DNA from: Moniliella sp. 'wahieum'
Lineage: Eukaryota
NCBI GenBank assembly: GCA_003971905.1
Contig: RSEE01000134.1
Span: 1-64,000 of the forward strand
Direction of reading: 5' to 3'
DNA: 64,000 nt
Shown here: positions 7,101-52,809 of the stretch, in pieces
Layout of the letters: each line of letters begins with the position of its first letter
Position numbering within the stretch: the stretch's first letter is position 1
Translations under genes and position numbers: made by a program
The notes under the pieces: generated by a model
Seen by the model: only the letters and a program-made list of their open reading frames with translations
What the model was told of the DNA's origin: nothing
Database searches by the model: none

Positions 7101-7758
7101 GCTCACGCGCTCACGCTGGGTCGTGCCACGGCGGGACCGAGAAAGGGTACTACTTGCTGCTTACTGCGTACTTACTGACCACTATGCATCCTGTTGGTTT
7201 TGTATTTGTTTTTGTTGTTGTGCAGTTGGGGTACGAAGGGCGAGACGAGCAGTGGCGGGTCCAAGCCCAAGCCTGGGGCCGTGACGAACGAAGGGGACAA
7301 GACGATGGTGGAGGTAACTTTACCAGGGGCAAAGAAGATGCGAACGAAGCGTACGTGGATGCGTGGGAACTGTTACCCAGCCATCTGATACGTCCCCTCC
7401 ACCGGTCAATGCGGCAGCCAAGACGAAAGATTACTATGCCAACATTCGTTCCAACGTGCTTTGGCATGGATGATGTCCAATGGCGGTCTGGCTATTGGCA
7501 TCTGCGTCATCTCCAACACGAATGTTCAGATTCAGTACATGGGCGTACTGCTCTACAGCGCAGCGGCGATTGCGGCTATCAAGCTCGTGGGCACCATCAT
7601 TTACTTGTAAGTACTTGTACCCTCTTTCTTTCCCTCCGGGTTCGGGTTTTGTCGGTGCGCTTTGCGATGGGGGAAAAAGACTGACCTGTATGTGTGTGCG
7701 TGTGTGCGTGGGCCTCGGCCACGCTCCTAGGATCAACTTCATCTTTGAGAAAAAGTGA
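4171..7758 (+). CDS. Chitin synthase, division 1 (class I/II/III type), with Pro-rich N-terminus
   Basis: TMYNED, KEKNQKKINS, LIDVGT, LPGAFSAYR, MYLAEDRILC, QRRRWLNG and SWGTKG motifs. Introns at about 5545-5727, 5929-6094, 7060-7225 and 7607-7730. Ends INFIFEKK-TGA. Confidence 0.95.
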
Positions 7759-9727: not shown

Positions 9728-12450
9728 ATGGCCACTGCCTCGTCGGCCACCAGCGCCCCGCTCGTCTCCAGCCGCATGATGAAGTCGGGCCTGCGCAACC
9801 GACCCTATACCAAGGTACGCCCTCTCTCCCTCCCCCCTCTCTTGTCGCCCCTGCCCCGCGCTCATCTCCTCATCTCCCCACCTTCTTATTCCCCCCGTTA
9901 CCGACCCACAGGACCTACACGACCTATTTGCCACGCTCATCGTCTCGCTCCGCCTCGCCTCGCACCGCACGCTCTTCCGCACCTACCCCTACACCTTCAC
10001 CACCGACCAAGCCGTGGCCAATCTGAGTGCGCTCAAGTCCCAGTCGTCGCGCCATCCCGACCCGCAGGAACCGAACCGCGTAATCACCACCACCACCACC
10101 ACGACGTTTACCATGAACCGGGAGATCGCCAAGGAAATTTGTCAGCACTTGTGGATGCGCACCTGATCCACAGTGCGTCCGATGTGGGTCTGTCTGTGTT
10201 TCGGGACAAGGGCATATGGGGGTTGACGCCCAAGGGTTACAGTCTTCTCGAGCGGTTCATTTCGATCAATGGGATTTCAGCTGACCACAACCTGCGCTCG
10301 CTGCACACCGACCTACGCTCCGCCTTGTCGTACTGGACCGCCGAGCTTCGGACGACGAGATTTCCATCCGACTTGCGCTTCTCGACTCGCTCTTCCGACG
10401 CTTTGCCGGTGTACAAGCCAACTACCCTAGCCGCGAAGCGTGGTACGGCAGCGCAACGTTTCGCCCGAGTACGGTGTGCCGTCACCTACGTCGCCATCGC
10501 CTTCCCCCGGACGCGGGGTTCGATCGTTCGCGCGGGGTGGAGATGGTGGATGTGGTAGAACGGCTGAGGGGGGGAGAGACGCGCGTGACACGACACGCAT
10601 TTAGTGCGCTCGGGGCGATCGAGTGGATGCTGGACCATACCTCCACATGTGGGCAGACGAAGCAGGGGAACTGTTAGCGCACTTTGAACGGCTCGACCTG
10701 ATCAAGTTGGTGGCGGATAAACCAAGACCGCGCTACCTCGTTCCCGTCCTGGCCAAACCCACTGACCCAGATATCGTTCTTGTTCGTGGCGCCGACGTCG
10801 GTGCCATGATTACCGAAGGCGAGTTCCGGTGCCACTACAAGTCGGTCTATGCCCTGACGATCGAGGTCGCGAGGTCGCTCGCTGGGAAGGCTTTACAAAC
10901 GTGCGTCGCCGGGGCAAGGTCTGGGCCTGGGCCTGGGGGCGGGGGTAGGAAGTGCAAGCACCGCACCGGGTCTAGCGTACCGCCATCGCCCCACCGCCAC
11001 CGCCACCGCCACCGCCACTGCCAGGGCTGGGCGTGCGGCATGCGCCCCTGGCCTCCTCGGGGATGGACCAAGTGCGGTCGTCAGCCGAGGACGATGGGGC
11101 GTCACTACATTCGGTCGGGAGCAAAGGTCCCAAGTCGGACATTTCTCCCGTCTTGGATCGGGCTCCCGGCCAGGGAGCGATCAGCATCAGCATCCGCTTC
11201 GGCATCCGCCTCGGTATCGGCTGAGAGGGCAAGCGGGTCAGGGGGCAATGTGGTGCCTGTCCCTGTCGCTATGCCTGTCCCTGTCCATGGACCTGTGGCG
11301 ACGAGCGTACGCGTGACCAAGGGAATCGTACGCGGCTTCGTCAGATCCTTGGGGACGCATCGCTGTGTGCGCTATTCCAAGCGTACCTCCGCACCAACTT
11401 TTGCGAGGAAAATTTATCCTTTTACCTGGACGTGCAAGACTTTAAACGGCGGTTTTCTACCACGTCGTCTGCCTCGGCTGTGCGGCCATCGAGCGCGGAC
11501 CGGTCCGTGCACGCCGACAAGCACGACAAGCACGATAAGGATAAGCACGATAAGCACGACAAGCACGACAAGCACGACAAGCACGACAAGCACGACAAGC
11601 ACGACAAGCACGATAAACACGACACTAAGCCCATTACGCGCGCGCCACGGTTCGTACCTATACCTACCAGCTGGCTGTCGAGGGGAGGATCCGCAAGTCC
11701 CGACGCAAGCGGTGCCGGTGCAGACCCCATCGAGGGAGGGGACGATACGACCTCAACCTCAACCTCAACCTCCAACTTGATGACCGAGCCTATGAGTGCG
11801 ATGGAACGCCACCCTCGACCTAATCGTGATTGCGTTTTGATTTTCAACACGTACCTTGTACCTGGTGGCGGCGGAGCTCAACCTGACCATGCGTACGCCG
11901 TGACCTGTTGGCGTACATGGGCAAGACGGCACCACAGGCGCTCCAACGTCCGGTACCCGTACCGCTACCGGCTCACGTGCCCACGGGGCCCGTGAACCGC
12001 GTACCCCTTCGCGTGGTAGTAGTCCTGCTCGTGTGGGTGTGGGTGTGGGTGTGGGTGTGGGTGCAGGTATGGGTGGGGAAGCACGTGAGGCAGGCAGCAC
12101 ACCGCGCATGGCAGCTATCGAACTAGGTTTGCCCACGGAAGAAACGCAAACAGGGAAGAAAGTACCGGTGCTTTCGCTCGAGGAGCGTAAAAGCTCGTGC
12201 TGAGCCAACTATCATCTCCCCAAGGTCAAGGTTCCGGCCAAGGTTCGGCCAAGTGTTTGGTTCCGGTCCATACCATGCATCGCAACTGCAAACGCTTCTG
12301 CGACTGTACAGTAAGATCCAAGAGCATATTTTATTTGAGGCGACGGATTCCGTCCCGCGGTTTGTGCGTGACCCGACGTTTGGCAAGGGGCTCAACAGAT
12401 CGCTGCGGTTTCGGCCAGGACGCTTGGACGTACGGTGTGGTGCCCGATGA
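9728..12450 (+). CDS. Fungal RGS protein (Sst2/FlbA/Crg1 type: DEP-like region plus split RGS domain), frameshifted
   Basis: N-terminal MMKSGLRNRPYTK|DLHDLFATL across intron 9815-9911; KGIWGLTPKG; RGS core FCEENLSFYLDVQDFKRRF; IFNTYL; C-terminal ATDSVPRFV. Confidence 0.85.
11516..11626 (+). repeat. Coding 9-bp tandem repeat (CAC GAY AAR)n = (His-Asp-Lys) x10 inside the RGS gene
   Basis: Directly visible. Substitutions between units (GAC/GAT, AAG/AAA) fall at third codon positions of the HDK frame. Confidence 0.95.
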
Positions 12451-12755: not shown

Positions 12756-13926
12756 CGTTTGGGCCAGTCTGCTTGGTCTGCCTCTCCTCTCCCTCTTCCT
12801 CTTCCTTCTTGCTATTCTTTTCCTTTTGCTATTCCTCTTCTTCCTTGCTATCCTGTCGCCTCTTCCGCTACGCGTTCGCTCTCTTGGGCTTGGACTTACT
12901 TGCCCGCGCGTCTCCGCACACACCAGGCTGCGCCACCGTACCCTCCCACACCGTGGATCGTGGCTCGTGGCTCGATATGGTACCGTGTGCACACTCCCTT
13001 CTCTCCGCGCTTACTTCCGCCTTCCTCCCTCCTTCCTCCTTGCTCCCGCTCCCCATTGCTTGCCATTGGCCTGTCCACTCGCAGCTGTACGACCTTGCAA
13101 CGGCACACAGCACGACACGGACGGCTTTCTTTCCACGGCGTTTCACTGTGCGTTGTGCGCGTTGTGCGCCTTGTACGGTCTATTTGTTTTTGTTTGTTTT
13201 TTGCATACGTGCCTTGCTACATCTCACGACCCCACCATGTGCAATTGTCATCTCTCTCTCTCTGGGTGCTAGGTGCTGGGTTCTGGGTGCTGGTTGCGCG
13301 TTTGGGCTTCGGGTGCTGTGTTCGAGATGCTGGATGCAGCGTTCGGGGTCTGCGTTCGGGGGGTTAGGTTCTGGGTTCGGGGTTAGTCTAAGGTGAGTAG
13401 TGAATAGTGAGTAGCGATGGTATGGCTGCCTTTGGAGTCGTCTTACGTCTTACTCTTACCGATCTGCTCCATCACTAGCTTGATCTGGCTTAGTTAGGTA
13501 CCGGCAACCTGCCCCTTTCAATCAGTCAATCGTGTGTCCTACCACCTTCCAATCAATCAATCAAAATCGCATGTCGCGTCCCACCCGTGCGCTTCATTCC
13601 CGCTTCGCCACCCAGTAGTACACGACCGTCTAAAATACGTCGACCGTCAGCTCCCCCCACTCACACTCACACTCACACTCAACCTAAACGTTAACCGCTG
13701 AACCAACAGCAGCTATAAGCCCAGGTTGAGCCACGGCAACAGGACAAAGACAAAGACAAGGGAAAGGGGAAGACGCATACAATTCGCCCCACTAGCCCAG
13801 CTGGACAGGCAGACCGACAGCGAGGCATAGCACCCCGCCACCGGTCCACCCAGTCCGGCGGGTCAACAGCGTAGAGCCAAGAGGCTAGAGCCAAGAACCT
13901 AGAGCTACCAGCGCAAAGCGCAGAGC

Positions 13927-16511
13927 TTAGAGCTTGTCGTAGTACTCGGTGTAAGGAGGGGGAGTCTCCTTGATACCCTTGCGAACACGAATCTTGGTGA
14001 CCAATTCGTAGACCTTGGACTTGGGGTCGGACGCGTCGCCGGGGAGCTCTTCCCAGTGGTCGAAGACGGATGGGGGAAAGCCTGGCCACCCGTAGCTGGC
14101 GGAGAGCAGCGTTGAACCCAAAGGATTCCGAGACGGGCAGTAAGCCTTGACGGTGTACATGGGCGTACCGGGCGCTGCTCCTCCATGACCACTTGGCCAC
14201 GACGCTTGTTGAGCGTCGAGTAGATACCGCCGAGACCCGATTCGGGGCACTGGATCTCCACGAGGTACATGGGCTCTTGCAGCGCGGGCGTGCAAGCAAG
14301 GCAGCAGCGTAGCACACACGACGGGCGGTGGGGATAATCTGTCCACCACCACGGTGGATAGCGTCCGTGTGCAGCGTCACGTCAACGACGTTGAAGCGAA
14401 CACCACGCATGGGCTCTTCGGCCAGAGGACCTTCCTTGGTGGCCCACTGGAACGCAGCCACACACGAGTCCTTAATTTCGTTAAGGTACTGCACACCCTT
14501 CGTCACGTCCACCATCAAGTTGGGGCCAGTCGTGTCCGGGCCAAAGGTCCAGATCTTACGAGCGTCCGTAACGTCCCAGCCAAACTCGTCGGCAAGGTAA
14601 CGAGCACGCGACTTGAAGTCGTCACGGGGGTTGACCTTGCCCTCCTCAATTGCGCGCGACAGTTCCTCACCAAGGGGAAGAGCGTCAACGTACAGACGGT
14701 TGTGCTTGTTCTGCGACTTGGACAGGCAGTCATGCTGCTCTGCGTGGTCACCGTCTCACGGTAGCCAACCACAGGGTCCGACTTCTTGAGGGGAACCTGG
14801 GCGTGGTCGTTCTCCAAGTCGTTGAGGCAGATCTCGAGGTGAAGCTCACCGGCACCGGCAACAATGTGCTCACCCGACTCGCCAATCCACGCCTGCACAC
14901 AGGGGTCCGACTTGGTCAGACGCTTCAGACCCTCAACCAGCTTGGGCAGGTCGTTGGCGTTCTTCACCTCAACGGCAACTTGCACGACGGGCGAGACAGA
15001 GAACTTCATGACACGCATGTTGTGCGCCGTCTCCGACGAGGTGAGGGTACCGCTCTTGAGCAGGAACTGGTCAACACCAACGAGACCGAGAATGTTACCG
15101 GCAGGGCAGTCCTCAATCGGCTCGACGTAACGGCCCATCATGAGCACGGTACGCTGAATCGACTTGATAAACAGGTCGTCCTTCTTGCCCGGGCGGTAGT
15201 TAGGGCCCTGGATGCGGATCTTGGGGCCCGAGCGGACGGTACCCGAGAGATACGGCCAAAGGCGTAGAAGCGGCCCTTGTCCGAGGTGGGAACCATCTTG
15301 GAAACGTAGAGCATCAGCGGCCCTTGGGGCGCAGTCACGGATACCAATGGCCGACTCGTCGTCCATAGGGCCCTCGTACAGCGTCTCCACACGGTAACGC
15401 TGCGCCGTCTTGGGCGAGGGGAGGTTGATGACAATCATCTCCAGCAGAGCGTCACCAGCGGGGAGGAACTTGCGCATGACAACCTTGAGGAGAGCCTTGC
15501 CCTCGAGGTCCTTCTCGTCCTGGGTCAGGGGCACCTCGAGCTTCTCGAGAATCTTGGCCGTCTCGTCCTTCTTGAAGTTCATCACCGAGTCAAAGATACG
15601 GTAGATGGGGTCGAGAACGAACATGTTGAACGCACGCTCGAGGGGCTTGCCGTCAGCGTCGGTCGACTTGGTGGTCCACTTCTTGGTCTTGGGTTGAAGT
15701 AGTTGTCGCCCCACAGCTTGCCCATCATCTTCTCCTTGTCCACACCAACTTCTTGGCGTAGCGGGCAGCGAACTGGGACAGGGTGAAGGCCCAGCCGTGG
15801 AGACCCGAGGCAAAGGCGACAGTGCCCTTCTCGGGGTAGACCTGCGACTCGCCGAGGACAGGGTCGTTGTAGGTGGCAATGACCACGTTGACCGACTCGA
15901 CCGTGCGCTGGAAAGAGGTGTAGAGCTCCTCCTTCTCGACCTGCAGCTCGAGAAGAGCGCGGTCAACCTTGTTCAAGCAGCAGACGGGCTTGATACGCTC
16001 ACCAGCGCCTGGCGCAGCACCGTCTCGGTCTGCACGCACACACCCTCAATGCAGTCGACGACCACAAGGGCACCGTCGGTGACACGGAGCGCAGCAGTGA
16101 CCTCCGAGGAGAAGTCAACGTGGCCGGGCGAGTCAATGAGGTTGATCAAGAACTCGTTGCCCTGGGACTCCTGCTTGACGTTCTTCATCTCCTCGGGCGA
16201 GAGGGGGAAGAACATGGAGATGGCGGTGGACTTGATGGTAATGCCACGCTCCTTCTCATCGTCACGCGTGTCGGTGAAACGCATGTCACCGGCCTTGGCC
16301 GAGGCAATGATACCGGCCTTGGAGACGAGCGAGTCGGTGAGGGTGGACTTGCCGTGGTCGACGTGGGCAATGACACTCATGTTGCGGATGTTGGTCGACT
16401 TGTCCATGAGACCACGGATCTCATCGACGGTAAAGTTAACCCTGGGGGGGGGAAGGTCAGTGGATGCTGCGCACGCACGAGAGCATGGGCGGGGCAGGGC
16501 AGGACGCACAT
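13927..16511 (-). CDS. EFT2: Translation elongation factor 2 (eEF2), frameshifted by sequencing errors
   Basis: [49 protein letters not shown], diphthamide loop [18 protein letters not shown]-terminal YYDKL-TAA. The start codon is split AT|G by intron 16442-16509. Confidence 0.98.
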
Positions 16512-18003: not shown

Positions 18004-18011
18004 TATATAAA
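18004..18011 (+). promoter_or_regulatory. TATA box (TATATAAA) of the SDR gene
   Basis: About 110 bp upstream of ATG 18120, followed by a CT-rich leader. Confidence 0.6.
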
Positions 18012-18119
18012 GCCGGCTGAGGCGCCATGCTTGCTTGTCGGTCGATATCCTCCCACGCCTCAGCTCACCTCCCTCTACTCTTCTCCACCCCCACCTTCTC
18101 GCTACTCCCACGCGCACCA

Positions 18120-19041
18120 ATGTCTCTCGGTCGTGTTGCAAACAAGATTGCTCTCGTGACGGGCGGAGGCAAGGGCATCGGGGCTGCTACCGCCCGTCTC
18201 CTGGCACGCGAAGGCGCCAAGGTGGTTGTTACTGACATTGACGAGGTCGGTGGTTCGGAAGTAACCAACGACATCAACAACACTGGTGGCCATGCGCATT
18301 ACGCCCTGAATACTTCTTCCAACAACGAATGGAATTCGGTGATGAAGAAGGTACGTCTTATTCCAGTTCACATCCTTTCGGTTGCGATGCGGTGGTGCAA
18401 TAAGAGCGAGCTGACACACTGAATGTGGACGTGGGGGGGGCGTAACTAGATCGAGTCTAAGTATGGCCAGCTCGATGTTGTCGTCAACAATGCCGGTATC
18501 TTGCAACTAGGAACGATTAGCAACACTTCGTATGAAAACTGGCGCAAGGTTCAATCGGTCAACTCGGACGGTGTCTTCCTCGGAGTGAAGCATGCGGTAG
18601 AGATGATGCGCAAGAACAAGACGCCAGGGTCCATTATCAACCTGTGCTCCATTCTCGGCCGCGTGGGGACGCGGGACTGTGTTTCGTATCCGGCCAGTAA
18701 GGGGTTGGTCAAACTTTTGACCAAGTCGGTCGCGCTGGACGAGGCACACCGAACGGGATTCGGATCAACAACGTTTGCCCTGCGTACATCGAGACTCCTT
18801 TGCTTGACATCATGTCCAAGGAGGAGCACGACGCCTTGTTGTCGTTGCACCCTATGGGCCGTCTGGGCAAGCCTGAGGAAGTGGCCAATGCCATTCTGTT
18901 CTTGGCCTCGGACGAGTCGTCGTATGTGACGGGTAGCGAGCTGATGGTCGATGGAGGGTACACGGCGCGTAAGTGTTTCAATGTGCTGGTTTGTGTTGCG
19001 TACTATGTGACTCAACTGACTCGGTTGCGCTGGCAGAGTGA
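18120..19041 (+). CDS. Classical short-chain dehydrogenase/reductase (glucose-1-DH / 3beta,17beta-HSD / R-ADH-like)
   Basis: TGGGKGIG, VVNNAG, catalytic YPASK, [41 protein letters not shown]. Introns 18351-18449 and 18969-19036; the second splits the last Gln codon C|AG before TGA. Confidence 0.92.
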
Positions 19042-20327
19042 ACAAAACACTTTCCCACAAAACTGTGTTTCCCATTGTTCGTCAACTGAACCGCTTCTCA
19101 GCCCGCATAATGCTCATGCTTGGTGTTGGTTCATTGAACGCACCAGAAGAGTCGGGTTTGTCCACGCCAATAACCAGAGGCAATACTATATGGAAACGGG
19201 GATGGTAATAATGTTGTTTCGGGTTGATCTATACGAGGCGGGCTGGGTTGTAGGTTGTACGAGACCGGAGTGTAAAAGACCAGTGTAGAAGCCCAGAGGA
19301 GCAGGCAGCTGATGGTGCGGTGTGTAAGACCGGAGGAACCCAAGGGGTTGGGCAATGAACCTCTGGAAATGCAGAGCAATGCAATCGCGGTGGTGGTGAG
19401 GTCTAAGCTCTAAGCATGATACCACACCTAGAGGAAACAGGGGTTCAAACAAGCCTGAGTATACACGTGGAGCTTCGGAGGTCAAATAAGGGGCAAAGGG
19501 TGATAATCGATAATGCCTAAGGCCTAAGGCACCTTGGCCTATGCGCGTCCCAACATGTTGCATACTGACTACAGGATTGAGTTACATGACGCTACTACGG
19601 GGAACAGCGTTCCCGAGTACCTCGGAGCTCCTGGACTGCTGCAACTGGTCCGACGACCTACGTACGCGGCACCTACCGCGAAGAGGGCTTGAGGCTTCAA
19701 TCTGCTGCACCTGTCTACGCCGCAACACTAGCGGCACTGGAACAATGTTCCAGGGTCTATACCCATTAATCAAGAGCGCCACTTTCAGTTTCCCTATTTG
19801 CGACTTGCTGTAGGACTAGTGGGCACTATGATACTCACTTGAGCTGCGGGTGATCTACGGCGCTAGTTGAACGTTGAGACCGTGACTTTATTAAAGCTTA
19901 GAGGGTCAAGCTTCAAGCTGGCTCTGACGAAGTGAGCGCATCTGAGAGGCGATTGTGCGTCACGCGTCACACGGGGGGGGGGAAGGCCCATCAGTTTGTA
20001 TCAGTATATCATAGCTGTCCCACAATGTATCTGAGGAACCGGACGCGTGCCCTGACCCATGCCTCGAAGGATGGATCAGAGAGCCAACAGGAGCGGGGGC
20101 CGTCACAGCACAAGGCCAGCTAAGAGCGAGCACCAGGCTCCAGTCCTAGTTCGTCCACCCTCTCGCACTTTCCCGCCTATCCTGTCCTACTCCTGCACGT
20201 TTTCCAGCAAATTGATCCAGTGAAGGTAGGATCCTCTTAGGATGACTCCCGACTCCTCTTCCGACCTCGTCCTCCAGCGCTCCGTCAGTACTCGTCAGTC
20301 CAGTCGCGCGAGCCGTCCTCTGTGGAG

Positions 20328-25341: not shown

Positions 25342-26875
25342 TCACTGCGCCTTGACCGGCGCCGCAAGGGTAGAGTGCATATCATGGATCAAATCGAGGG
25401 CACGGCGGGTAGATGCATGGGTGGGATCTTCCAGTGGAGGCGGGGCGGGCGACCAAGGGAAAGGGAGCCACTGTTGCAAGTACTCGTACGCCACCAGCGT
25501 GGCGCCAAATTGCGGTGAAGAGCGCAGGACCCGGGCCAAGGATCCTTTGAAGAACGCCGGGACCTTCTTGCGCCAGGATCTTGCGGAAACAATCGAGGAT
25601 ACCATGGTAGGTCGCTTGCCCCTGCCGGGCTTCGACTTGCAAGCGTGTCTTGATCACGTCGGCTGGGGTGGAGAGGAAGGCAGCGGGCATGCCACTGATC
25701 GCTGCTGCGGCCAACGTCTCGCCAAACCCAAGCTGTTTGCCATTGAGCCCTTCTTGGAACACATCCTTCTTCAGATGCGCATACGCCGGGAAGTAGATCG
25801 CGCTAAAGGGAATGTCCCGCAACAAGCACGCTCCTGCACCCTTGTACAGGCCCCGCACACCCAACTGCCGCACAATTTGCATCCCACCCAACTTGGCTGG
25901 CGCCGCCGCACCGTCGGCAGCGGCCTTGGCCAGCTCGCCTTGCACTTGCAAGCGAATCTTGACAATCTCTGTATGTGGGGACGAGGTGAAAGTGTGCTCC
26001 ATGTCAGTATAGATCAACAGTTGGGTAGTGTTGTTTGCAGAGGCAGACAAGACAAGGCGGATCATACGTACCCAAAGGGTTGGTAAACACGACCTGGCAT
26101 CCGCCCGCTGATCCACCAGCAACGAGTTCCCACACCAGTCCGATCTCCCCTGTGAGCGGGTCCTTGGTCTTGGCGCGAACCAGGTCGTTGACCGTCAACT
26201 TGATCGCCTTTTCCGGTGCGACACCAACCAGCTGAGGTCCCAGGCCCGAATAGAATCCGCCCAGACCCTCGTTGCGAAACACCTTGGCCACACAATCGAG
26301 ACTGTTCTTGTACATCGGCGCCTCCCCCACGGGCGCACGTTGGTTCTGCATCCGCGTCTTGACCAGATCAATGGGGTAGACCATCGTCGCACCCACCGAA
26401 CCAGCCACGCCGCCCAGAGCAAAGTGGTAGACCGACTTGCTAATGTCATACAACACCGACTGCGCCGACTCGTGGGCCAGGTCGTGGTGCCGGGGCAGGT
26501 GGGTGGATCCCACCTCGTCCAAATAGGCCTCGGCGTCGACCTCGGTCGCTGGCGCAGATGCAGATGCAGATGCGGGTGCGGGATGCGGGCAGGCGGGATC
26601 CGCATGCGACGGCTGTAGCGTATCGCCAATCCGCAGCTGGTGCACCATCTCGCTCGTGCCCGGTTGGGCCTTGGGGTCGGCCGGTGTGCGCGTGTAGCGA
26701 ATCAGGCCGGCGGGGCGGTGTTGGCTTCGTGCTGGAACGCTTCCAGCTGGGCGTGCAGCTCGGGCGACAGGCGCGGCGGGGCGGAGGGTGGCGTTGACGA
26801 CAAAGGGAAGGTCGCGTTCCGTGGGAGCTTCGCACGCAAGCGGCGCACGCAGAAAAGGGGGACGAGGGCGGACAT
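25342..26875 (-). CDS. AGC1: Mitochondrial aspartate/glutamate carrier (Agc1/aralar/citrin-type carrier domain) with a short N-terminus
   Basis: [54 protein letters not shown] (intron 25969-26071), [35 protein letters not shown]. Start ATG at 26875 is tentative. Confidence 0.88.
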
Positions 26876-28520
26876 GGGGGGGGTGGAGGAGGGCCAAGCA
26901 AAGAACAGCAGCAGGGGCGGACGGACGGGAGGAGGAAGACGTCTCGCGGGCGGGTGGAAAGGTGCTTAAAACAAGGAGCGTGGGAAGGGGAGGGTACGAG
27001 GACCGAGCTGCTGGTACTCTCCCCTGTTGCGCATGCTGTCGCTAATCGATCTTGGTGATCGAGTAAGATAACCCACCGAAAGGGACAAAAATATATCGAT
27101 GCCCCATCCACGCTCCCACCGATTGGCCAGCCCAGGCGCGGGGCAATTGCTACTAGTTACTAGTTGCTGGCGCCGCCCCGATGACATGTGCCACGCGCGG
27201 AGGGGCGTAGGCGGGGGCACAGGGGCAGTGTGCCAGGAGGCGCAGCGCCAGCAAGGGGCCAGTGCTCGAAAGCTTAGCTCGCCCGCTGGAACCAGGTAAC
27301 CCACCCGAGGAGAGTGCGGAGCCTACCCAGCTGGGCCGCTCGGCTGAAGCTGAGGCTGAGCCTCGGCGCGTCGGCGGCTCAGCCAGACGCTTTCCGCGGC
27401 ACCCGTCTGGGCCAGTGCCAGCACTGCGCCGCCCACCTGCTCCCATCCCACCCCGTAGTCCCACGCCTCCCGCCCATGCCACCCTCGCCTCGTCATCTTC
27501 CCATTGCCATTCCCACTGCGATTCCCATTGCGATTCCCATTGCGCTGCCCACTCCCATGCCCCCGTTCATGCCCACTGGCACACAGTACGCCCATGCACC
27601 GCTACGTACCCCCCCATCCCTCGGCCCTTCTCAAGCATCACGACGCACACCCATGGATTCAGCACGCGCACCAAGCACCCCCACGCAGCAGCGGATCGAT
27701 CGGGCCAGAGAGACCGATCGAGATCACGTCCCGTCCACCCAACCCGGCGGGACGAGCACGGTGCCACGCTCGAGTGATAAGATCCACAGGCGATCAACTA
27801 CCTGGTGCTGATGCATATGATACTGGAGATGGTTGATGATTGATGAGAGGCTTTAATTTACTTTCAGCGTGGGACGGAACGTTCATCTTGTACCAAGTTG
27901 CAAGTTGGAGGCTGGAGGCTGGAGGTTGAAGGCTGGAGGCTGCAAGCTGGAACCGAGCGCGAGGCAGCAGAGAGAACTGAAAACTGGAGTCGGTATGGCG
28001 AGTAGAATGAGATAAGCGTGGAAGGGGGCTCGGGGGGCAACTTTCCCACTGCACGTCTTGGAAGGCAGCGCGCATGGCAGCCAGCAGGAAGGGTAGCATG
28101 GTAACAACATGAAACAGAGTGGTGAACGCGGTGGGAAACGGAACATAACAACAGCAGTGAGAGATTGCTTGGGTGGTGCGCGACGCGTAGCGAGTGAGCG
28201 AGTGCCAACAGGCACACGCTACGCGTCGCAGCAAGGAAATGAGCTGAAGAGACGAGCGCACAGTAGGATCGCTCTGACGCGGATGCAGGACGCAGAACGC
28301 GTCATATGTGTGTGCTTGGCTTAAAGATAGGGGGGAGGAGAGACATCCACTTGGTCAAACCCGTTCGAGGGAGGGAATGGGCATGGGGTAAGGATATTGA
28401 CACGTATCCACCTAATCCACGCGTACACGCACCCAAACCTAGTGCTGCGCGGCAGGGGATAGAGTCGCCGTGCTTTGTTCGACCCTGGAGGCCAGCTTGC
28501 CTCCAGACTCGTACGTGCGC

Positions 28521-28634
28521 CTATTGGTCACGAGGGCGATCGTACTTGCGGAAAGGGTCGTGGTTGCAGTAAGGGCACAGCGGCGTGTCGCTCTTCAACC
28601 CCTCGTAGCACCAGTTGCAGATGATCGGGTCCAT
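28521..28634 (-). CDS. Putative 37-aa zinc-ribbon microprotein MDPIICNWCYEGLKSDTPLCPYCNHDPFRKYDRPRDQ
   Basis: CNWC-x10-CPYC motif; tctaccATGg start context; GC-ending codons; upstream TATA (29089-29099), CT-rich leader and 5'UTR intron 28750-28920. First AUG of the predicted spliced transcript. Too short for the supplied ORF track. Confidence 0.7.
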   Translation of the reverse strand: MDPIICNWCYEGLKSDTPLCPYCNHDPFRKYDRPRDQ

Positions 28635-29088
28635 GGTAGAGGATAGAAAGGGAGATGGTGAGGGGCCAGTTGGCAATAAGGCAGATTGGAAGCGAGAACA
28701 GCTTGAGACTCAGAAGGGACCCGGTTGAGGTTGAGGACGGCACGGGAACCTGCAGTGATGCAAAGGATTGGAGAATGCGGTCATCAGGTCAGTACAACTC
28801 TGCTGTGCGAGAATAATAAATGTGGCCTCGGCTCTGGCATATCAGCAGGTATGTACATGCACAGGACTTGGTACAATGCCATAATGCAAGAGACGCGAGG
28901 GTGGCGCGGAAGATACGCACCTTGATCAGCGAGCAGACGAAGGCGACGGGCAGAGGAGTGGCAAAGCAGAGGAGATGGTGATGGAGCAAACCAGAGGGGA
29001 GAAGCGTGCGCGAGAAGCACTACTAGGAGAAGAGAGAAGACGCAGGCGAGGGATGCCGAGATGCTGTGCGATAAGATGATCGTCGCGG

Positions 29089-29099
29089 ATATATAAATA
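29089..29099 (-). promoter_or_regulatory. TATA-like element (TATTTATATAT) of the predicted microprotein transcript
   Basis: Isolated AT island in GC-rich DNA, followed on the minus strand by a pyrimidine-rich, AUG-free leader and a CAAG|GTGCGT splice donor. Confidence 0.55.
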
Positions 29100-31129
29100 C
29101 CCCACGTCTCGACAGGGGGGCAGCACAGCGCTGCACCGCTGCCCAACCGGCAAGTGGCTCGGCATAGGTCCGAGTCATCTTGCTATCATTGCCATCCGTC
29201 TTGAAGCTTGAAGCTTCACAGCTTCGCCTCCTCTGCGTCATCGCGCGTGCGCGCCATCATGCATCGTGCGTGTGAGTCGTGTCCGCTGTGTGTTGACCAA
29301 CCACGAAGAGATGCCGAGTGCGACGGGGCGTCAGATTGTCCGAACAAAATGGTACAGGGGGAGGAACTGTCCGAACGATGGCCTCGTGCATCATCGAATC
29401 ATCCACGTTCAATGTTCAACAAGGCGCGACGTTGGACGCTGGCCTCGTTCCCCTCCTGTCCCGTTGGCGATTCAGGAGGACACTCTCCGGGGGCAGCCGG
29501 GGGCCTCCTGTGGCCCCACGGCGCAACACGTGCCGCCGCCTGCGCCATCGCCCAATCTCCCCATCCGGGATTGATAACGCGTAAGCGCGTAAGGCCTAAG
29601 GCCTAAGGAGCGAAGCAACGTGATGCGTGACATGTGACACACCGGTGCTAGGGTTCGTACTTGGTGCCTGGGTGGGATGCGGGGTGAGCCGGGGAGGGGG
29701 GCAGTGTGCTCCGGCTGAGCGCCACGTTGTACCGCGCCCACACCCGCAGTGCTAGGCGCTAGGCGCTAGCCGCCGCCTGCCCCAGCGTCCCATCTGTAGT
29801 GGCAGGCGGCGCAGCCTAATCGAGATTCGCTGGCCAACGTGGCGCTCATTGTTTACCGCCGCAGGCGACAGCACGCCGGAACAAAGAGCTGCTGTGGCTG
29901 GCGGGGGGGATCTGTATGTGTACGCGCCTAGTCTGACCGACCTAGTCGGCTCCATTGTTATCCATGGTATCGAGTACGGGTTACTAGCTAATTCAGTTAT
30001 CAAGCTACCCAGCTACCAATCGTACCCGGTACTGCCGTACTGAGTCAAGTGCACTGCCCCTGCGATGGCGTAGCTAGCTTGCCCAACGCCCAGCGCCCAG
30101 CGCCCACAGGTGATTCCGTCCGCCGTGCGAGCACGAAGGCGAGGGGAAGATGTGATGCATGTGACAGGAGTGTGACACGTGGTGGGAGGGCGTGCGGGTG
30201 CGTGCGCTTTGGGCTGTTGTCGATCCGTGATATACAGATCTCAGATCAATCTATCAATCCAATCTGAATCACGCGATCACGTGCCCCACCAGCGGCGGCG
30301 CCTCTGGCCTTAGCCTCTGGCCTCTGGCCTCTGGCCTTAGGCCTTATCTCTGGCGGCAACCTACCACCTGGTCTGGGGATTGGTGGATTCCCCCTTGCTG
30401 GTGCGGCGGGCAACTACTCTGCACGTGCAGCCCAGCTGCAAAGAGTACCGCAAGCACCACGCACGGATTGATGAGTGCTCCAGGCCTCGGATTCAGGCCT
30501 CAGGCTGAGGCACCAGAGCACGCATCGCGACAGGAGACTATGTAACCCCCCCCCCCCTTTTTGCGTGCGTCGCCCCCAGCTTCCAGCAAACAAGGTGGGG
30601 CGGGGGGGGGGGGGCGGCGGGGGGCAGGGTCTGGCAGGGGAGGCGCGCTACGCCTAGGTATGCAGTATGGCCAAACCGTTCAGGTTCAATGTTCAGACGT
30701 TCAGGTGTCGATCAGATGGCCGCGCACGCGGTCACGTGTGCATGCTTCGGCCGTAGCAGAGGTTCGATGTCGATGACCGGACCATAGCTGCCTTTTCTAT
30801 AGCTACCACGGTCAGGTTGGCCTTTCTTTCTGGGGAGGACTCGGACTCGGCGTTCAGCGTGCCAAGACGGAAATCTGAGGCGAGGAGGGCGCTGAACCAG
30901 CGCTAAACGCGTCAGCTGAGCGCTTAGGAGATCCGGACCGGTGGCCATACTGACAACCACCATCGATTCTTGAGATCACCACAATCTCGCCAACGTATCG
31001 TCAAGACCCACCCATCAGACACTTGCATCAGATTCAGAACTCAGACCAGTCCTGGGAACGGAGAGGAGAGGTCCAGGAAGCCACATATAGGCTTCTCTGA
31101 AGTATGGGGGCCCCTATATAGAAGCCAAC

Positions 31130-31525: not shown

Positions 31526-34104
31526 CTTTTGTACCAGGGAGGGTTGGCGTTTGCTGGTCTTCTTGGCCTTGAAGTTTGACGTTTGACATGTGGCACTTGA
31601 CGCTTAGCGCTGGCAAAACACTTGGCCCGTCAGACGTCTGACGCGCGACGGGGTGTGTGCGGTACTACGCCGACGACGCCGACGTGAACGAGAGGATGAG
31701 GGGATTATATCGATTACCGATTATCGACTATCGAGTATAGGTGCTGGGCGTTTGGTGGACTTGAGGCTTTTTAGGAGTTACTAGTTACTGGGTATCGGTT
31801 ACCACAGCTGTCGGAGGTACTAATAGTTCCCGGTTCCCGGTTACCAGCTACCACACAGCCTATAGTTACCCATTGTAGTAAAGCGGTGGGGGGCACGCAG
31901 CGTAAGGCGTACATGTAAGAGGGGACCGGTGACGGTGAACGGGGACTCGCAAATAGGCTAACATTTTAGGCAGTGTGCTGGTGTTCTTGTGCCTGGGCAG
32001 CATATATAGGAGGAGGCAGCTGCGCAGCAAGCGCATGATCTGCATGCTCACTCGATCACACGTCAAGCTTCAAGAGTCACATGCACATACGTACTACGTA
32101 GTCCGGAGTACGTACCGAGCACTGCGTCTTCCTATCCGTCTCAGATCTCACGTACGCGTACGGGCGTCCCCTACTTGAGCATCGTTTCCTCGTTCTTGTA
32201 GCGATGCCACATTTCGATTTGGGTGGCACGTCAAGCGGTACAAACGATCAATGACGTCGATGGGGTGGACTGTAAAAGCAGCTAGGAGATGATACAGAGG
32301 TCAGTGTAGGGTGAGTACTAAGCCGCCGGTGACCGGTGACCGTTCCCCAAGAGCGTGACGGGCGGTGTGGTTTTTGGTTTGCGGAAACGTCCATGGTTCA
32401 AGCCAGCAGCAGACAGGAACCCAGGAACCTGGATGCCATTTTCCACACAGCCATAGGGGGGCGCACAGCCATTCCGTATGACTGCTATTGCACCCTATTG
32501 TACAACGAATTTCACTCCATTAAAAGTTGAACCCAACCGTTTCGCGTTGATACGCCTTACTGCGTTACCGCCTGCTTCACTAGCAGAATGCCGGCCTATT
32601 TGATTGGCCGAACCAAAGGCATGGGTCTGTGCTTGCGAGAGCCTGGGCCTGCGGTCTGAGGATCGCGGAGGCCGCTCTGCCTTCCATCTGAGACAGACCC
32701 GAAAGCTCGGTCTGAGCCGTGCGCGCATGGACGCATGAGCATGAGCGCATGAGTGCACGAGCACAGAACATCAGGTGGCGGCAAGGTGGGGGCAGGGAGG
32801 CGTCGAATTTTGGGCTCCTGCCAGTGGGTTAGGCACCACAATGGGTTGTGGCCACAGTTCAATTGAGCCCCGTTTTCTCACGCCTGCCAGGGAGCATTGG
32901 GCAATACGGCGGCATCGGGCTACGGGATGATCGATGGATGACGCGTCGATGACGGCATGCCGTCGCCAGTCTGATCGTGGTGTAGGAGTGGGGTGACCGG
33001 TGACCGTCACCGACTGGCTGGGCCGTGCGCGTTTGCGTTTGCGTTTGCACTTGCGTTTGCGTTTGCGTTTGGCTCTGGACAGGCGATGACATACCCAAAC
33101 GGCAAGGAACATGGAACGCAGGGCGACCGTCATTTTGATTTGCGACTCGCATGGGCGTGCGCGGGCATAGCGTCTTGCCTGCGTCTGTCTGTTGTGCTAG
33201 CCGTGGTGACTGAGGCCAGGTGGTGTCTTGGGGGAAATCCGCCCCCGCGTTAGAAATCCCTCATGGCGTCATCGACGACGCTTGGGCAGCGGCAGGGCGG
33301 AGGAGACAAAGCAGCGGCTGGGGGTTGGGCGGGGCAAGGGTGGCCCTGCAGGCGCGGTGAGTGGGTGGGGCTGTGTGTGGGATAGTGCCGTGCCGCTCGC
33401 AGCAGGACGCAGACTGAGGTGGTGCCGGCGCCGACAGTGGCGCCTGGGCCGACAGGGTGCGCACGGGGGCTTTGAACGCGGCAGGGCGACTGGCGTGGTG
33501 CCTGCAGCCCTCGCCGGGCACTGTGCCGTCCTGCTCGGCGCCACGCCAGCCGGCCGACGCAGGGCCGACCCTGCCGAGGCCTAGTGCACCCATGCCTGTC
33601 CTGCCGCGCGGCTGCTGCCCTGGGACATGGAATCACTAATCACTACCAAAGAGCTCGTGCACGTGCCTGCTGCCACAGCAGTGCTCCCACCCCCTGCCGC
33701 CCCCCTGCGACCACCAATATACAATGCGCGCGCACCGCCTTGTCTCATGCGGCCATCACCAGCACCAGCGCAGCGCGGCGCACGCGCATGCGCACTGGCC
33801 ACTCGGTACTGCGGCCCTCGCCGCGCACACACCCCAACACCGGCCCCGTGCGCCTCCCGCATTTCCCCAGCGCCGGCGGGGGGGCAGCGTCGCGGGCTGT
33901 GCGCAGGGCACACGGCCGCTGTGAAACGCTGCGTCCAGTGATGCTGGTGCATGATGCATGATGCATGCAGAAGAGGAAATAATGCAGAACACAGTGCACC
34001 GCCGTGCGAAGAGGCTGTGCGTGCTTGGCTGCGCTTGGCCCAGCACACCCGCCCCCTGCCCCCTGCCCATCTTCCCACTCTTCTTCGTGTCGACCCGTCG
34101 GGGC

Positions 34105-34120
34105 ACGCGCATGTATATAA
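34105..34120 (+). promoter_or_regulatory. ACGCGCATG-TATATAA core promoter element of the fasciclin gene
   Basis: TATA box about 80 bp before ATG 34203. An identical 16-mer occurs at 45202-45217. Confidence 0.65.
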
Positions 34121-34202
34121 GCTGCCCAACCGCACCCCAGCACACCCGCCTTGGTCTGCCCATCTGCCCCTCTTCTCTTCTCCTCTCACTCCTTCTCGTA
34201 CC

Positions 34203-35617
34203 ATGCGCACCTCCGCTGTCTTTGCCGCTGCCGCCGCCGCCGGCGCGTACGCCCTGCCCCAGTCCCGCCAGGCCGCCAACGCCAGCGAGACGCTCATCAA
34301 CGACCTCAAGTCGCACAACCTCACCCAGCTCGCCAACCTCCTGTCCAACAACATGGTTGTTGCCGACAAGATCGTTGCCAATGCCGGCGAGAAGCTCTTC
34401 CTTGCGCCCGTTGACGCTGCCATCACCGGCCTCCCCGCCTGGGTCTCGGGCAACCAGACCGAGCTCCAGGCCACGCTCCTTCAGCACGGTATGTCTTTTT
34501 TGCTTCCCTCCGGTTCATTCTTTGTTGCAGTGTATTGACTGGCGTTTCTCTGTGCAGTCCTCAACGGCTCCTTCCCCGTGGACCAGATTCCCAACGCGCC
34601 CACGCACGCTCTTGGCTACTCGCTCCTTACCGACGGTGCCTTTGCTGCTCAGCCCGGTGGCAATGGTCTGCCCATTTCGCTGTCCAAGCGTGGCGACGGA
34701 CCCTTTGACGTGTTTGAGGGTCTCAACTCGGATGCTGTTACCGAGACGCCGTTTGGCATCTCGAACAACATCACTGTTGCGCCTATTGCCCAGGCCATCA
34801 CTGTGCCCGGCACCACGTCGTACACGCTTGGCTTTGTCGCTCACCAGACGCAGCTGGTCAACACGCTGGCCAACTCTACCTACTTCAACGTCAACGACCT
34901 TGACTCGCTTCCTGGTGTGACGGTGTTTGTTCCTACCACGGAAGCCTGGACGGCCGCTGCTGACAAGATCAACGCGACGGGCAACGCTACCATTGTGGCC
35001 TTGCAGCACATTATTCAGAACCGTGCTGCGTTTACGCCGTGCTGCTGCGCACCCAGGGCTCGCTCGTCAATGCTGCTGGCCAAGACGTGTACTACGAGGC
35101 GAGCAACAACTCTGTCCGTGTCGGTTCGAGCTGGGCCCAGATTATCCAGTCGGACATTATCTCGAAGAACGGTGTGATCCACACTGTGAACAATGTCCTG
35201 ATTGACTCGAACTACAACGAGTCGCGCTCGATTGCCGCTGCCCTGTCGGCGCGCAAGTCGTTCCACGGCCCCGTTACTGGTTTTATCCAGGGCGACAATG
35301 CTGGTTCGACCCAGGGTCCTGCCGTGCCCGGCCCCGACGCCAACAACCCCGCTACAGGCTTCTCTAACTCTACTGTGGCCGGTAACGACAACGGTGCCAA
35401 CACGACGGGTACCGGCGGCCCCAACGGCACGGGCAACAACACATCTGGCAATGGCACCACCAGCGGTTCCGGCAACGGTACCAGCGGCAGCGGCAAGGGC
35501 AACGGCAACGGCAACGGTTCCGGCAAGGGCGGCAAGCCCAACGCTGCGGGCTCGTTGTACGTCAAGATGGCCGGTCTGCTCGGTGTGGCTGCCGTGTCGG
35601 CGGCTTCGCTGCTTTAA
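34203..35617 (+). CDS. Secreted, probably GPI-anchored fasciclin (two FAS1 domains)
   Basis: Signal peptide MRTSAVFAAAAAAGAYA; LFLAPVDAA...LLQH|VL (intron 34489-34557); VTVFVPTTEA; DIISKNGVIHTVNNVL; G/N/T-rich stalk; hydrophobic C-terminal tail after NAAG. Confidence 0.9.
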
Positions 35618-36592: not shown

Positions 36593-36673
36593 GGACGGCT
36601 GGCGCAATGGTAGCGCGTCTGACTACGACTGGTTGTAATCAGGAGGTTGCAGGTTCGACCCCTGCGTCGTTCG
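36593..36673 (+). tRNA. tRNA-Arg(ACG) with 9-nt intron (36629-36637)
   Basis: Acceptor stem GGACGGC/GTCGTTC, D arm GCGC-AATGGTA-GCGC, anticodon arm TCTGA-CT-ACG-A|intron|A-TCAGG, T arm GCAGG-TTCGACC-CCTGC. Confidence 0.95.
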
Positions 36674-45330: not shown

Positions 45331-46799
45331 ATGCTGTCCACCACGCTCCTTCCGCTCCTCACCCTTGCCGCCACGGCCGCCCCCGCGCTTGCCAAGGACC
45401 AGTACCAAGGCAAGTACCCCAACCCCAACAACCTCCCAGCCCAGGTGGATGCCAAGGGCGGCCAGACAGGGTACAACGACTGTGTCTCCCGTTACGGCTC
45501 TTCCAACCCCAATGCCAACTGCACCAACCTCTACGTCAGCGACCAGACCTCCTTTTGTCTCTATGGCCCCCCCACCCCCAACACCACCATCGGCGATGCC
45601 GAGGCTGAGGTGGTGAGCTGGTGTCTCAAGGACGGGTTTGGTACTCGGCTCATTCCCGAAGGCACCATTACTGGCGCTCACTTTGTCAAGACGCCCAACT
45701 TTGTTCAGGTTCGTCGACTCCCCCACGGTTTCTCTCCCCCCCCCCCCCTTGTTCTGCTTTCCCTCTGATGGCCCGCTCTGACCGGTCATTTGATCCACCC
45801 TGCGGGTTTCCGTACAAACAGGTCACGGGAGTAGGCGACTTTACCAAAATCAACCTCGCCAAGGGCGACGACGGCGGCGAGCTGGATCCTCATGGTGCGA
45901 CCGGATCGGGCAACCCGGTTGGCGGGCTGGTGTTTACCGATGCCTTGACGGGAAGCTTTGAGCGTATTCCCGAGTGGACTCACTTCATTGGCTTTGACAC
46001 CTTCTGCATCCGTCTCTGCACGGGCGGCGAGTCGCTGGACGCACAACAGTACTGCCAGCACATTTACGATGTGTATGTTTTTCGATTCCTTTGAATTGCG
46101 TGTGGTTCTTGTGGTCTCGATTGCTGACAAGGGTGCTGTTTCGGGCTTCGTTTTCGATTTGTTACCTACTTTGCTTTGCTATCTTTGGGGTCATCTATTT
46201 GCTCCTGCAGCATGGGGTACGTTTCATCCGTCTACTTACCGTTCCTCTTACCACTGGACCAGCCTACTGACTTGGGATCGACAGCTGCTACTGGGTCATG
46301 CCTGCCTCGTACGACGAAGGTATCTTTGAAGCGTGTGAAGGCGACTCGGGCGAAAAGCCTGGCATCTACTCTGTCAATGGCACGCTCTCCACCTTCTGGC
46401 AAGGATACAAGACTACCCCCGCGGCCCACACGGCTCCTTCCAGCTCCGACTGCAAGTCGGTCGCAACCATTGGAACTAACAGTTACCCATCCTCGATCAA
46501 GCCCTCATCTTCCGCCAAGACCGCCTCTTCCTCGTCCAAGGCCCTCTCTTCGTCCACCAAGACTCCTTCTTCTTCCAAGGCATCTTCTTCCACCAAGGCG
46601 CTCTCTTCAACCACGTACGCCTCCTCCAAGATGCACACCTCCAAGGCACCCACCCCACCACCACCACAGCCACGCTAACCATCACCATCATCCCGCCCAA
46701 TCCACCCAGTCGGCCGATGGCAGCTGGCCGTACGGCGGCGACGGCTGGTACAATGGGGACAGTGACAACGAGGACCCCTGGTGGTGGTGGTGGTGGTAA
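45331..46799 (+). CDS. Secreted basidiomycete mannoprotein (Cryptococcus MP88 / 'macrophage-activating glycoprotein' family) with Ser/Thr-rich stalk
   Basis: Signal peptide; QTGYNDC, FCLYGPP, GTRLIPEGTITGAHFVKTP, DGGELDPHGA...GNPVGG, CQHIYDVMGCYW. Introns 45709-45821, 46073-46210 and 46217-46284. Stop is at 46678 or 46799 depending on an indel. Confidence 0.85.

Positions 46800-47309: not shown

Positions 47310-52809
<5,500 letters not shown>

Follow-up and report, generated by a model that had tools for sequence, protein, structure and literature searches.

A candidate TATA-driven, spliced gene for a 37-residue zinc-ribbon peptide upstream of AGC1 in Moniliella sp. 'wahieum'

The first 64,000 nucleotides of contig RSEE01000134.1 of Moniliella sp. 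'wahieum' (assembly GCA_003971905.1; hereafter the 64-kb window, to which all coordinates refer) contain, between the gene of a mitochondrial carrier (the AGC1 orthologue) and a fasciclin-domain gene, a small candidate gene that had been proposed in an initial annotation of this DNA. The candidate, which is read on the minus strand and was assessed from sequence alone, comprises a TATA element, a CT-rich 5' leader interrupted by a predicted intron, and a 37-codon frame (Table 1) whose predicted product (P0001, MDPIICNWCYEGLKSDTPLCPYCNHDPFRKYDRPRDQ) contains two pairs of cysteines. These elements are present in the sequence and are statistically enriched, and their joint occurrence as a coincidence is very unlikely. 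The interpretation considered somewhat probable on balance is that the locus gives rise to a real, spliced, TATA-driven mRNA, the only sensible product of which would be a 37-amino-acid (aa) single zinc-ribbon protein.

Table 1. Features of the candidate gene and of other parts of the 64-kb window (a slash marks a splice junction; UTR, untranslated region; HSP, high-scoring segment pair)
Feature	Position	Strand	Details
TATA element	29089..29099	-	TATTTATATAT on the minus strand, TATATAAATA on the plus strand
Exon 1, CT-rich ATG-free 5' leader	28921..29060	-	5' end is an estimate, 30-60 nt downstream of TATA
Predicted 5'-UTR intron	28750..28920	-	171 nt; donor CAAG/GTGCGT, G of GT at 28920; acceptor CTGCAG ends at 28750
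Branch-site motif TACTGAC	28788..28794	-	38 nt before the acceptor end
Exon 2 leader, CT-rich	28635..28749	-	115 nt, 72% pyrimidine, 0 ATG
Candidate coding sequence	28521..28634	-	37 codons + TAG; start tctaccATGg at 28634; TAG 28523-28521
Perfect 8-bp hairpin, 6-nt loop	28485..28506	-	arms CTGGAGGC / GCCTCCAG; begins 15 nt past the stop codon
Mitochondrial carrier (AGC1 orthologue)	~25360-26875	-	Pfam; ATG at 26875
AGC1 intron	26071-25969	-	confirmed by tblastn HSP ends 26073 and 25969; GTACGT, TACTGAC 26009-26003, CAG +34
Fasciclin-domain gene	from ~34200	+	Pfam
tRNA-Val (anticodon TAC)	36593-36673	+	ARAGORN; only tRNA gene in the window
Chitin synthase intron	5545-5726	+	GTACGT, TACTGAC 5690-5696, CAG +30; junction HRWFF/NAFC
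Strict intron architecture, putative chitin synthase	7060-7225		GTGCGT donor; would join DVS/WGTKG
Strict intron architecture	19320-19607		no gene attributed
Strict intron architecture	46217-46284		between two coding segments

The positions that had been given for the TATA element, donor, branch site, acceptor, start and stop were all recovered on the minus strand, and most of the accompanying description was found to be accurate as well. The region between the TATA element and the donor (29088-28921, 168 nt) consists of 72% pyrimidine and 11% A, and both leader parts are CT-rich to the same degree (72% pyrimidine each) and, as had been claimed, free of ATG. The proposal that the intron would remove all upstream AUGs also agrees with the sequence, in which all four upstream ATGs lie inside the intron 28920-28750. 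The 37-codon frame is not extendable upstream because of an in-frame TGA (28712-28710) between the acceptor and the candidate ATG. In the translation, Cys6, Cys9, Cys20 and Cys23 form the four-cysteine pattern CxxC-x10-CxxC that the initial annotation had reported, with CPYC as the second knuckle, and the codons do mostly end in G or C (third-position G+C fraction, GC3, of 0.84 vs 0.70 in confirmed exons). The tryptic peptides expected from the frame are MDPIICNWCYEGLK and SDTPLCPYCNHDPFR. Just beyond the stop codon lies a perfect hairpin; according to a rough, unsimulated estimate, a few hairpins of this kind would be expected by chance in 64 kb, and this hairpin may lie outside the candidate gene.

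The frame departs from chance expectation in its cysteine pattern, codon usage and start context. Among the 333 ATG-initiated frames of 20-60 aa in the window, one contains the pattern CxxC-x6-25-CxxC, namely the candidate, compared with 0.09 expected from 100 third-order Markov simulations; when the count is extended to all 597 ATG frames with 20 aa or more, five have the pattern (simulated mean, 0.7). A 102-aa frame at 11422-11730 on the minus strand, in which SCL repeats (SCLSCLSCL...) imitate CxxC, was recognized as a simple-sequence artefact opposite an RGS-domain gene region. Codon usage was scored with a log-odds table derived from 5332 codons in 17 exon pieces, 16 of which came from Pfam-matched open reading frames (ORFs), the 17th being the EFG_IV ORF 13694-14755. 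The candidate has an exon-like codon usage on this scale (0.246 bits per codon vs a mean of 0.245 for real 37-codon exon pieces; standard deviation 0.236, n = 135) and ranks 7th among 211 small frames. The frames ranked higher include at least one true exon piece (the first exon of RPB1, 52672-52809), and several of the others are probably true exon pieces as well. The five alternative frames over the same segment all have negative codon scores. Besides, the candidate is one of 10 among the 1780 ATGs of the window that are found in the context ACCATGG, and it has the start context taccATG in common with the fasciclin gene. The two leader parts together have 283 nt; a sequence of this length is ATG-free in 3.5% of random samples and in 9.7% of samples rich in pyrimidine.

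The promoter elements of the window provide a second line of evidence. The consensus TATAWAWR occurs nine times compared with 1.34 expected (6.7-fold), a number that was reached in none of 100 shuffles. Two of these TATA boxes, each tied to a Pfam-confirmed gene, could serve as references: that of an SDR gene (18004), with 74% pyrimidine 20-120 nt downstream on the sense strand and the ATG at +108, and that of the fasciclin gene (34114), with 77% pyrimidine in the same interval and the ATG at +81. At the candidate TATA element, the pyrimidine fraction of the corresponding interval reaches 0.74 on the minus side (99th percentile of the window), compared with 0.55 on the plus side. In addition, a repeat finder detected 74% complementarity between 29011-29045 and the segment 34164-34198 of the fasciclin leader, each of the two lying about 50 nt from its own TATA box. 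A recurring core-promoter layout, consisting of TATA, a strong CT block about 50 nt downstream in the sense direction and an ATG, was observed at 18004-18120 (+), 34114-34205 (+) and 29011-29099 (-).

Similar enrichment was found for intron signals. The branch-site motif TACTGAC is present 11 times in the window vs 4.43 expected, and 11 copies were reached in none of 100 shuffles. A strict intron architecture, defined as GTRNGT, TACTGAC within 300 nt and YAG 8-50 nt later, was detected six times (at the candidate and at the five other sites in Table 1) vs 1.22 expected (standard deviation 1.08; maximum of 6 in 60 simulations), an approximately five-fold excess, because of which the candidate intron is quite likely to be real. 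This predicted intron combines a GTGCGT donor, TACTGAC and a CAG at +38, and its acceptor lies within the range of 13-46 nt past the branch that characterizes the confirmed introns. The chitin synthase intron was confirmed by the Pfam Chitin_synth_1 match, which halts at profile position 126 before it and restarts at position 131 after it. The architecture at 7060-7225 would create the junction DVS/WGTKG, a putative chitin synthase motif; the exon pieces flanking it had no Pfam or PDB match, and its GTGCGT donor is unconfirmed. An intron-hosted small nucleolar RNA or other RNA was considered for the candidate intron and rejected, as no Rfam match was found in the intron and it folds like shuffled sequences (z 0.49).

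As for the peptide itself, the two CxxC knuckles and the short, hairpin-length spacer between them are those of a zinc ribbon. The recognition score of the peptide in the ESM Atlas was 2845, a level of 2300 being reached by 91% of known families and by 9% of shuffled sequences. The nearest Atlas clusters are zinc-ribbon proteins of 39-57 aa at 0.87-0.91, with the 0.9 level reached by 4-10% of shuffled sequences; taxa are recorded for just two of these clusters, one bacterial and one viral. A neighbouring 101-aa frame, which served as an internal control, scored 1084 and had no usable match. The initial annotation had described the spacing as that of a zinc ribbon or a rubredoxin-like knuckle pair; the knuckle pair was found as described, whereas the threshold of the zinc-ribbon profiles (PF13248 / PF13240) was not reached (Zn_ribbon_3, 12.7 bits, E 0.093, vs a cut-off of 27; PF13240 was unreported) and rubredoxin was discarded. 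In rubredoxins, CxxCG ... CPxCG knuckles are located about 30 residues apart around an aromatic core. The spacer of the candidate has 10 residues, and no match to rubredoxin (PF00301) was obtained at E<=10. A pheromone precursor or a metallothionein was also rejected on inspection: the peptide has no C-terminal CaaX, and contains only four Cys in 37 residues and six aromatic residues. No paralogues of the candidate were found within the window.

A number of results weigh against a gene for a 37-aa zinc-ribbon protein, and the first group of them concerns homology. No orthologue was detected: a phmmer search against 1,835,955,588 representative proteins yielded just two matches at E<=0.001, P0002 (165 aa, tandem 14-residue units) and P0003 (445 aa, five zinc-ribbon repeats), both of which were rejected as orthologues, their scores being summed over 5-6 repeats of a generic C..C..GL.S..PLC..C knuckle. 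A word-based search among proteins of 34-109 aa, the query of which was the 62-aa stop-to-stop frame (region 23-62), found nothing. The exact 37-aa peptide is absent from a collection of 15 billion proteins and is hence unannotated. All of its Pfam matches are below the 27-bit cut-off (zf-RING_4, 17.1 bits, E 0.0047; zf-C3HC4_3, 16.2 bits; Prok-RING_4, 14.2 bits; Zn_ribbon_3, 12.7 bits) and rest largely on the cysteines. The 62-aa stop-to-stop version had no Pfam match at E 0.01, an NCBIfam search of the peptide gave nothing meaningful, and a sequence search of the PDB produced nine matches at E<=10, none of which was significant. The AlphaFold2 model computed without an alignment had a mean pLDDT of 60.1 and a pTM of 0.28, with a helix at residues 3-12 and no strands or hairpins; a model of this kind would be uninformative for a metal-dependent mini-domain.

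The second group concerns coding potential. The total coding score of the candidate is just 10.9 bits, and noise peaks of 6-16 bits were obtained by maximal-segment scanning in 26.5-34.5 kb. Such a score, the shortness of the frame and the lack of a conserved protein relative would suit an RNA with a real promoter and a real intron that is spliced and non-coding, for example one in tandem upstream of AGC1 that influences it, the 37-codon frame being its fortuitous first ORF. The surrounding 6.9 kb without recognizable coding content would be in line with such an RNA, which, if it reached the A-rich stretch near 27860 via a second CT block, would have about 670 nt after the stop codon. However, a random first ORF would have the four-cysteine pattern in approximately 3 of 10,000 cases (0.09 per ~333 small frames), in addition to which an exon-like codon score (top 3%) and the context ACCATGG (0.6% of ATGs) would be required. 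Furthermore, the clearance of AUGs from the leader by the intron matters only if the downstream AUG is used. A non-coding transcript is considered unlikely, though a serious alternative.

The second pyrimidine-rich block is located downstream of the candidate (28400-27900, minus strand) and is followed by an A-rich stretch (27900-27801). It contains a 101-aa ATG frame (28099-27794, minus strand; the Atlas control mentioned above) with a taccATG context, a hydrophobic N-terminus and no Pfam match. The region 27794-28400 could represent a 3' UTR, another small transcript or nothing.

The third group concerns the promoter and intron signals. Plus-strand matches to TATAWAWR are found at the candidate TATA element (29090-29097, TATATAAA, and 29092-29099), so that the minus-strand element of the initial annotation can be accepted only in part: its sequence is present and the CT-rich leader lies on the minus side, whereas the strict consensus reads on the plus strand. 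The same orientation is seen in the four plus-strand matches that precede plus-strand coding regions, two of them ahead of Pfam-confirmed genes and two assigned by position only. The spliced leader of the candidate would have about 225-255 nt, two to three times the TATA-to-ATG distance of 81-108 nt in the two reference genes. Moreover, chance is expected to account for about one of the six strict intron architectures. A rival reading is a chance constellation in intergenic DNA, in which no transcript starts on the minus strand, the TATA element belongs to a plus-strand transcript or has no function, and the presence of the intron and the ORF is a coincidence. In favour of it are the orientation of the consensus, the ~1.2 strict intron architectures per window to be expected at random, and a loose intron pattern with CTRAC that is unenriched (52 observed vs 45 expected). 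The frame was also picked from the whole window, and by extrapolation several hundred such windows would yield tens of small frames with CxxC..CxxC by chance. On the other hand, the features, each of them rare by itself, are for the most part independent, and base composition shifts exactly at the predicted exon/intron borders (pyrimidine fraction: exon 1, 0.72; intron, 0.59; exon 2, 0.72; coding sequence, 0.52). No CT-rich leader is present on the plus side of the TATA element, and a plus-strand gene served by this element was rejected: the best plus-strand frame (29756-30040) had no homologue among proteins of 52-167 aa and no Pfam match. A chance constellation is judged quite improbable.

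The last point against the proposed gene is the quality of the assembly, which is indel-prone, so any frame of 114 nt carries some risk of misreading. AGC1 needs four frame switches to track its orthologues (at C5T4, C4, C4 and CCCGGCG runs), RPB1 on the minus strand has an in-frame stop at 50954-50956, and in chitin synthase on the plus strand (5520-5545) one C of TCCCAT is missing. Judged by yeast RPB1, part of the sequence beside the RPB1 stop (IPKGINV) may belong in a shifted frame. In the window, 42 of 118 adjacent high-scoring coding segments abut in different frames, which is an upper bound that includes at least one true intron as well as antisense shadows. As RPB1 is essential, the indels look like those of an unpolished assembly rather than of pseudogenes. 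In the candidate frame as assembled, all four Cys are in register.

Frequent frameshifts are one reason to ask whether the frame belongs to something larger, such as an upstream ORF in a very long AGC1 leader, an exon remnant of a decayed gene with a RING domain or zinc ribbon, or a longer coding sequence truncated by an indel. The frame shares its strand with AGC1, the ATG of which (26875) follows 1.65 kb downstream, and its best sub-threshold Pfam matches correspond to the second half of RING domains. In the two best of the non-significant PDB matches, which are striking local resemblances within residues 1-31, MDPIICNWCYEGLKSD aligned with the start of the Slx1 RING construct 4zdt_A (E 0.17), and PLCPYCNHDPFR with the zinc ribbon of TOP3B (topoisomerase 3-beta) in 9cah_A (PLCPYC.NH.PFR, E 0.11); these resemblances may hint at an origin from a larger zinc-binding protein. 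Against an origin in the AGC1 leader, AGC1 has its own promoter set, comprising a CCAAT box near 27125, a TATA-like element ATATATTTTT near 27090 and a CT-rich leader (26960-26876), and its orthologues align from the ATG at 26875. The candidate unit is hence not needed as the AGC1 promoter and would constitute a separate unit on the same strand. A CTRAY branch followed by a YAG acceptor does not occur between the 37-codon frame and 26900, and the frame contains one weak donor-like site (28545, CAA/GTACGA); splicing of the frame to downstream exons was rejected on these grounds, and the frame is terminal, since no canonical branch-plus-acceptor is found between it and AGC1. Likewise, of the 112 stop-to-stop frames with 45 aa or more that were searched in 26.4-34.5 kb (the known AGC1 ORF 26007-27041 was left out of 113), none had a Pfam match at E<=0.01, and a nearby remnant of a RING, Slx1 nuclease or other domain was rejected accordingly. 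The flanking frames show no coding signal, and no upstream exon or domain was found. Membership of a larger unit is given a low probability, slightly below that of a chance constellation.

The genes around the candidate were identified with Pfam, for which 66 of the 97 stop-to-stop frames with 180 aa or more were scanned. Besides AGC1 and the fasciclin-domain gene, the window contains genes for a chitin synthase, an EF-G-family GTPase (EF-Tu GTP-binding domain plus EF-G domains III and IV), Svf1, a methyltransferase, MDM10, an ING/PHD protein, RPB1 and a VHS/FYVE protein. The best named relatives of AGC1 are found in Tilletia, Sporisorium, Pseudozyma, Thecaphora, Testicularia, Meira and Ceraceosorus, with 62-78% identity and no 100% match, which places the fungus in the Ustilaginomycotina; judged by these sequences, the nearest annotated relatives are distant (74-78% identity for AGC1 at best). 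Between 27100 and 33950 (~6.9 kb), no recognizable gene, tRNA, significant Rfam match or transposon-like repeat was detected, and such a gene-poor stretch is unusual for a compact fungal genome. A transposon or repeat origin of this stretch was rejected, as it contains just short low-complexity repeats. Five copies of a 12-nt TTCCCATTGCGA-like unit and a GCGTTT hexamer array were observed at 27498-27574 and 33024-33077, where the repeats yield spurious open frames with inflated codon scores. The best coding peak of the stretch (29888-30040 on the plus strand, 16.4 bits, within the frame 29756-30040) has no homologue. The suggestion that the candidate partly explains the ~7-kb gap between AGC1 and the fasciclin gene is valid for a small part of it: the candidate covers about 0.6-0.8 kb of the ~6.9 kb, and the rest is unexplained.

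The candidate peptide was compared with several groups of known small zinc proteins. One-domain zinc-finger micro-proteins of haloarchaea, to which the initial annotation had rightly referred, are documented in PMC11241148, PMC10716476 and PMC6562870. The C(P)XCG proteins of Haloferax volcanii (HVO_0758) and Brz of Halobacterium salinarum are, like the candidate, stand-alone proteins of <70 aa with two cysteine knuckles, one of them CPxC. According to PMC2253796, Brz is encoded directly upstream of the gene that it regulates and in the same orientation, an arrangement that the position of the candidate upstream of AGC1 on the same strand resembles. However, the haloarchaeal C(P)XCG motif, as described in PMC11241148, needs a Gly after the second Cys, whereas the knuckles of the candidate (CNWCY and CPYCN) both lack it, so that its length (37 aa) fits this group and its knuckles do not. 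The haloarchaeal micro-proteins also belong to another domain of life and show no detectable sequence relationship to the candidate, which would be a spliced eukaryotic gene.

The families PF13248 (Zn_ribbon_3) and PF13240 (Zn_Ribbon_1), which are mostly prokaryotic, share with the candidate the CxxC-x10-CxxC arrangement with CPxC as the second knuckle, but the peptide scores below the cut-off. In comparison with the RING fingers PF14570 (zf-RING_4) and PF13920 (zf-C3HC4_3), residues 4-25 align to the last two cysteine pairs (profile positions 24-45 of 48 and 24-44 of 49, respectively), and the N-terminal 24 residues provide the non-significant alignment to the start of the Slx1 construct. The first half of a RING (C-x2-C ... 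C-x-H) is missing: a RING has eight ligands in a cross-brace, whereas the candidate has four Cys and one His after the last Cys, that is, four ligands only, and scores of 17.1 and 16.2 bits vs 27. Stand-alone eukaryotic proteins of ~38-70 aa with a fold built around one zinc ion and a structural adaptor function in larger complexes include Rpb12, eS29 and bL36m. Their mode of action is the one proposed for the candidate, with no similarity to any of them detected by phmmer; the sole related PDB entry was bL32m, at a non-significant E of 0.41. No fungal zinc-ribbon microprotein was found in the literature that was searched, the publications retrieved being prokaryotic, general or on other subjects by their titles, and the word 'zinc' occurs 0 times in the available part of a review of the fungal 'hidden genome' (PMC11413187).

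On the interpretation favoured here, the locus would be a small minus-strand gene of its own, located upstream of AGC1 in a member of the Ustilaginomycotina. Transcription by RNA polymerase II would be initiated within the CT-rich block, about 30-60 nt past the TATA element (29099-29089), an interval estimated from the sequence. Splicing of the intron from the 5' UTR would then take out the upstream AUGs, and scanning ribosomes would begin at the first AUG of the mature leader (28634, ACCAUGG), which would give the 37-residue peptide. The knuckles C6-N-W-C9 and C20-P-Y-C23 may bind one zinc ion, around which the first ~25 residues would fold as a single zinc ribbon followed by the charged tail FRKYDRPRDQ. 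For a domain so small, the most likely function would be that of a zinc-dependent adaptor docking onto a larger protein or nucleic acid; both zinc binding and such an adaptor or regulator role are inferred from general knowledge of zinc ribbons. The metal- or redox-sensing role suggested in the initial annotation is speculation, neither supported nor excluded by these results. The same annotation had regarded the locus as a real gene missed by length cut-offs, in favour of which are the gene-like promoter, intron, start context, codon usage and motif statistics, whereas a conserved relative, Pfam membership and a confident fold are lacking. It is a much more distant possibility that this is a lineage-restricted, TATA-driven and intron-containing gene for one 37-residue zinc ribbon, as a fungal counterpart of the archaeal micro-proteins, that may regulate AGC1 or mitochondrial metabolism in the manner of Brz upstream of bop.

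If the candidate were not real, it would be a useful warning of how gene-like chance constellations can look. If it is real, it would represent a fungal gene that is unannotated, that standard gene callers do not see and whose product, among the smallest stand-alone zinc-binding proteins of eukaryotes, is without a relative in current protein databases. It would also offer a compact and chemically tractable test case, in which the 37-mer could be synthesized, its metal binding examined and the gene deleted beside a mitochondrial carrier gene, and it would illustrate the extent of small-protein coding capacity that is overlooked in fungal genomes.

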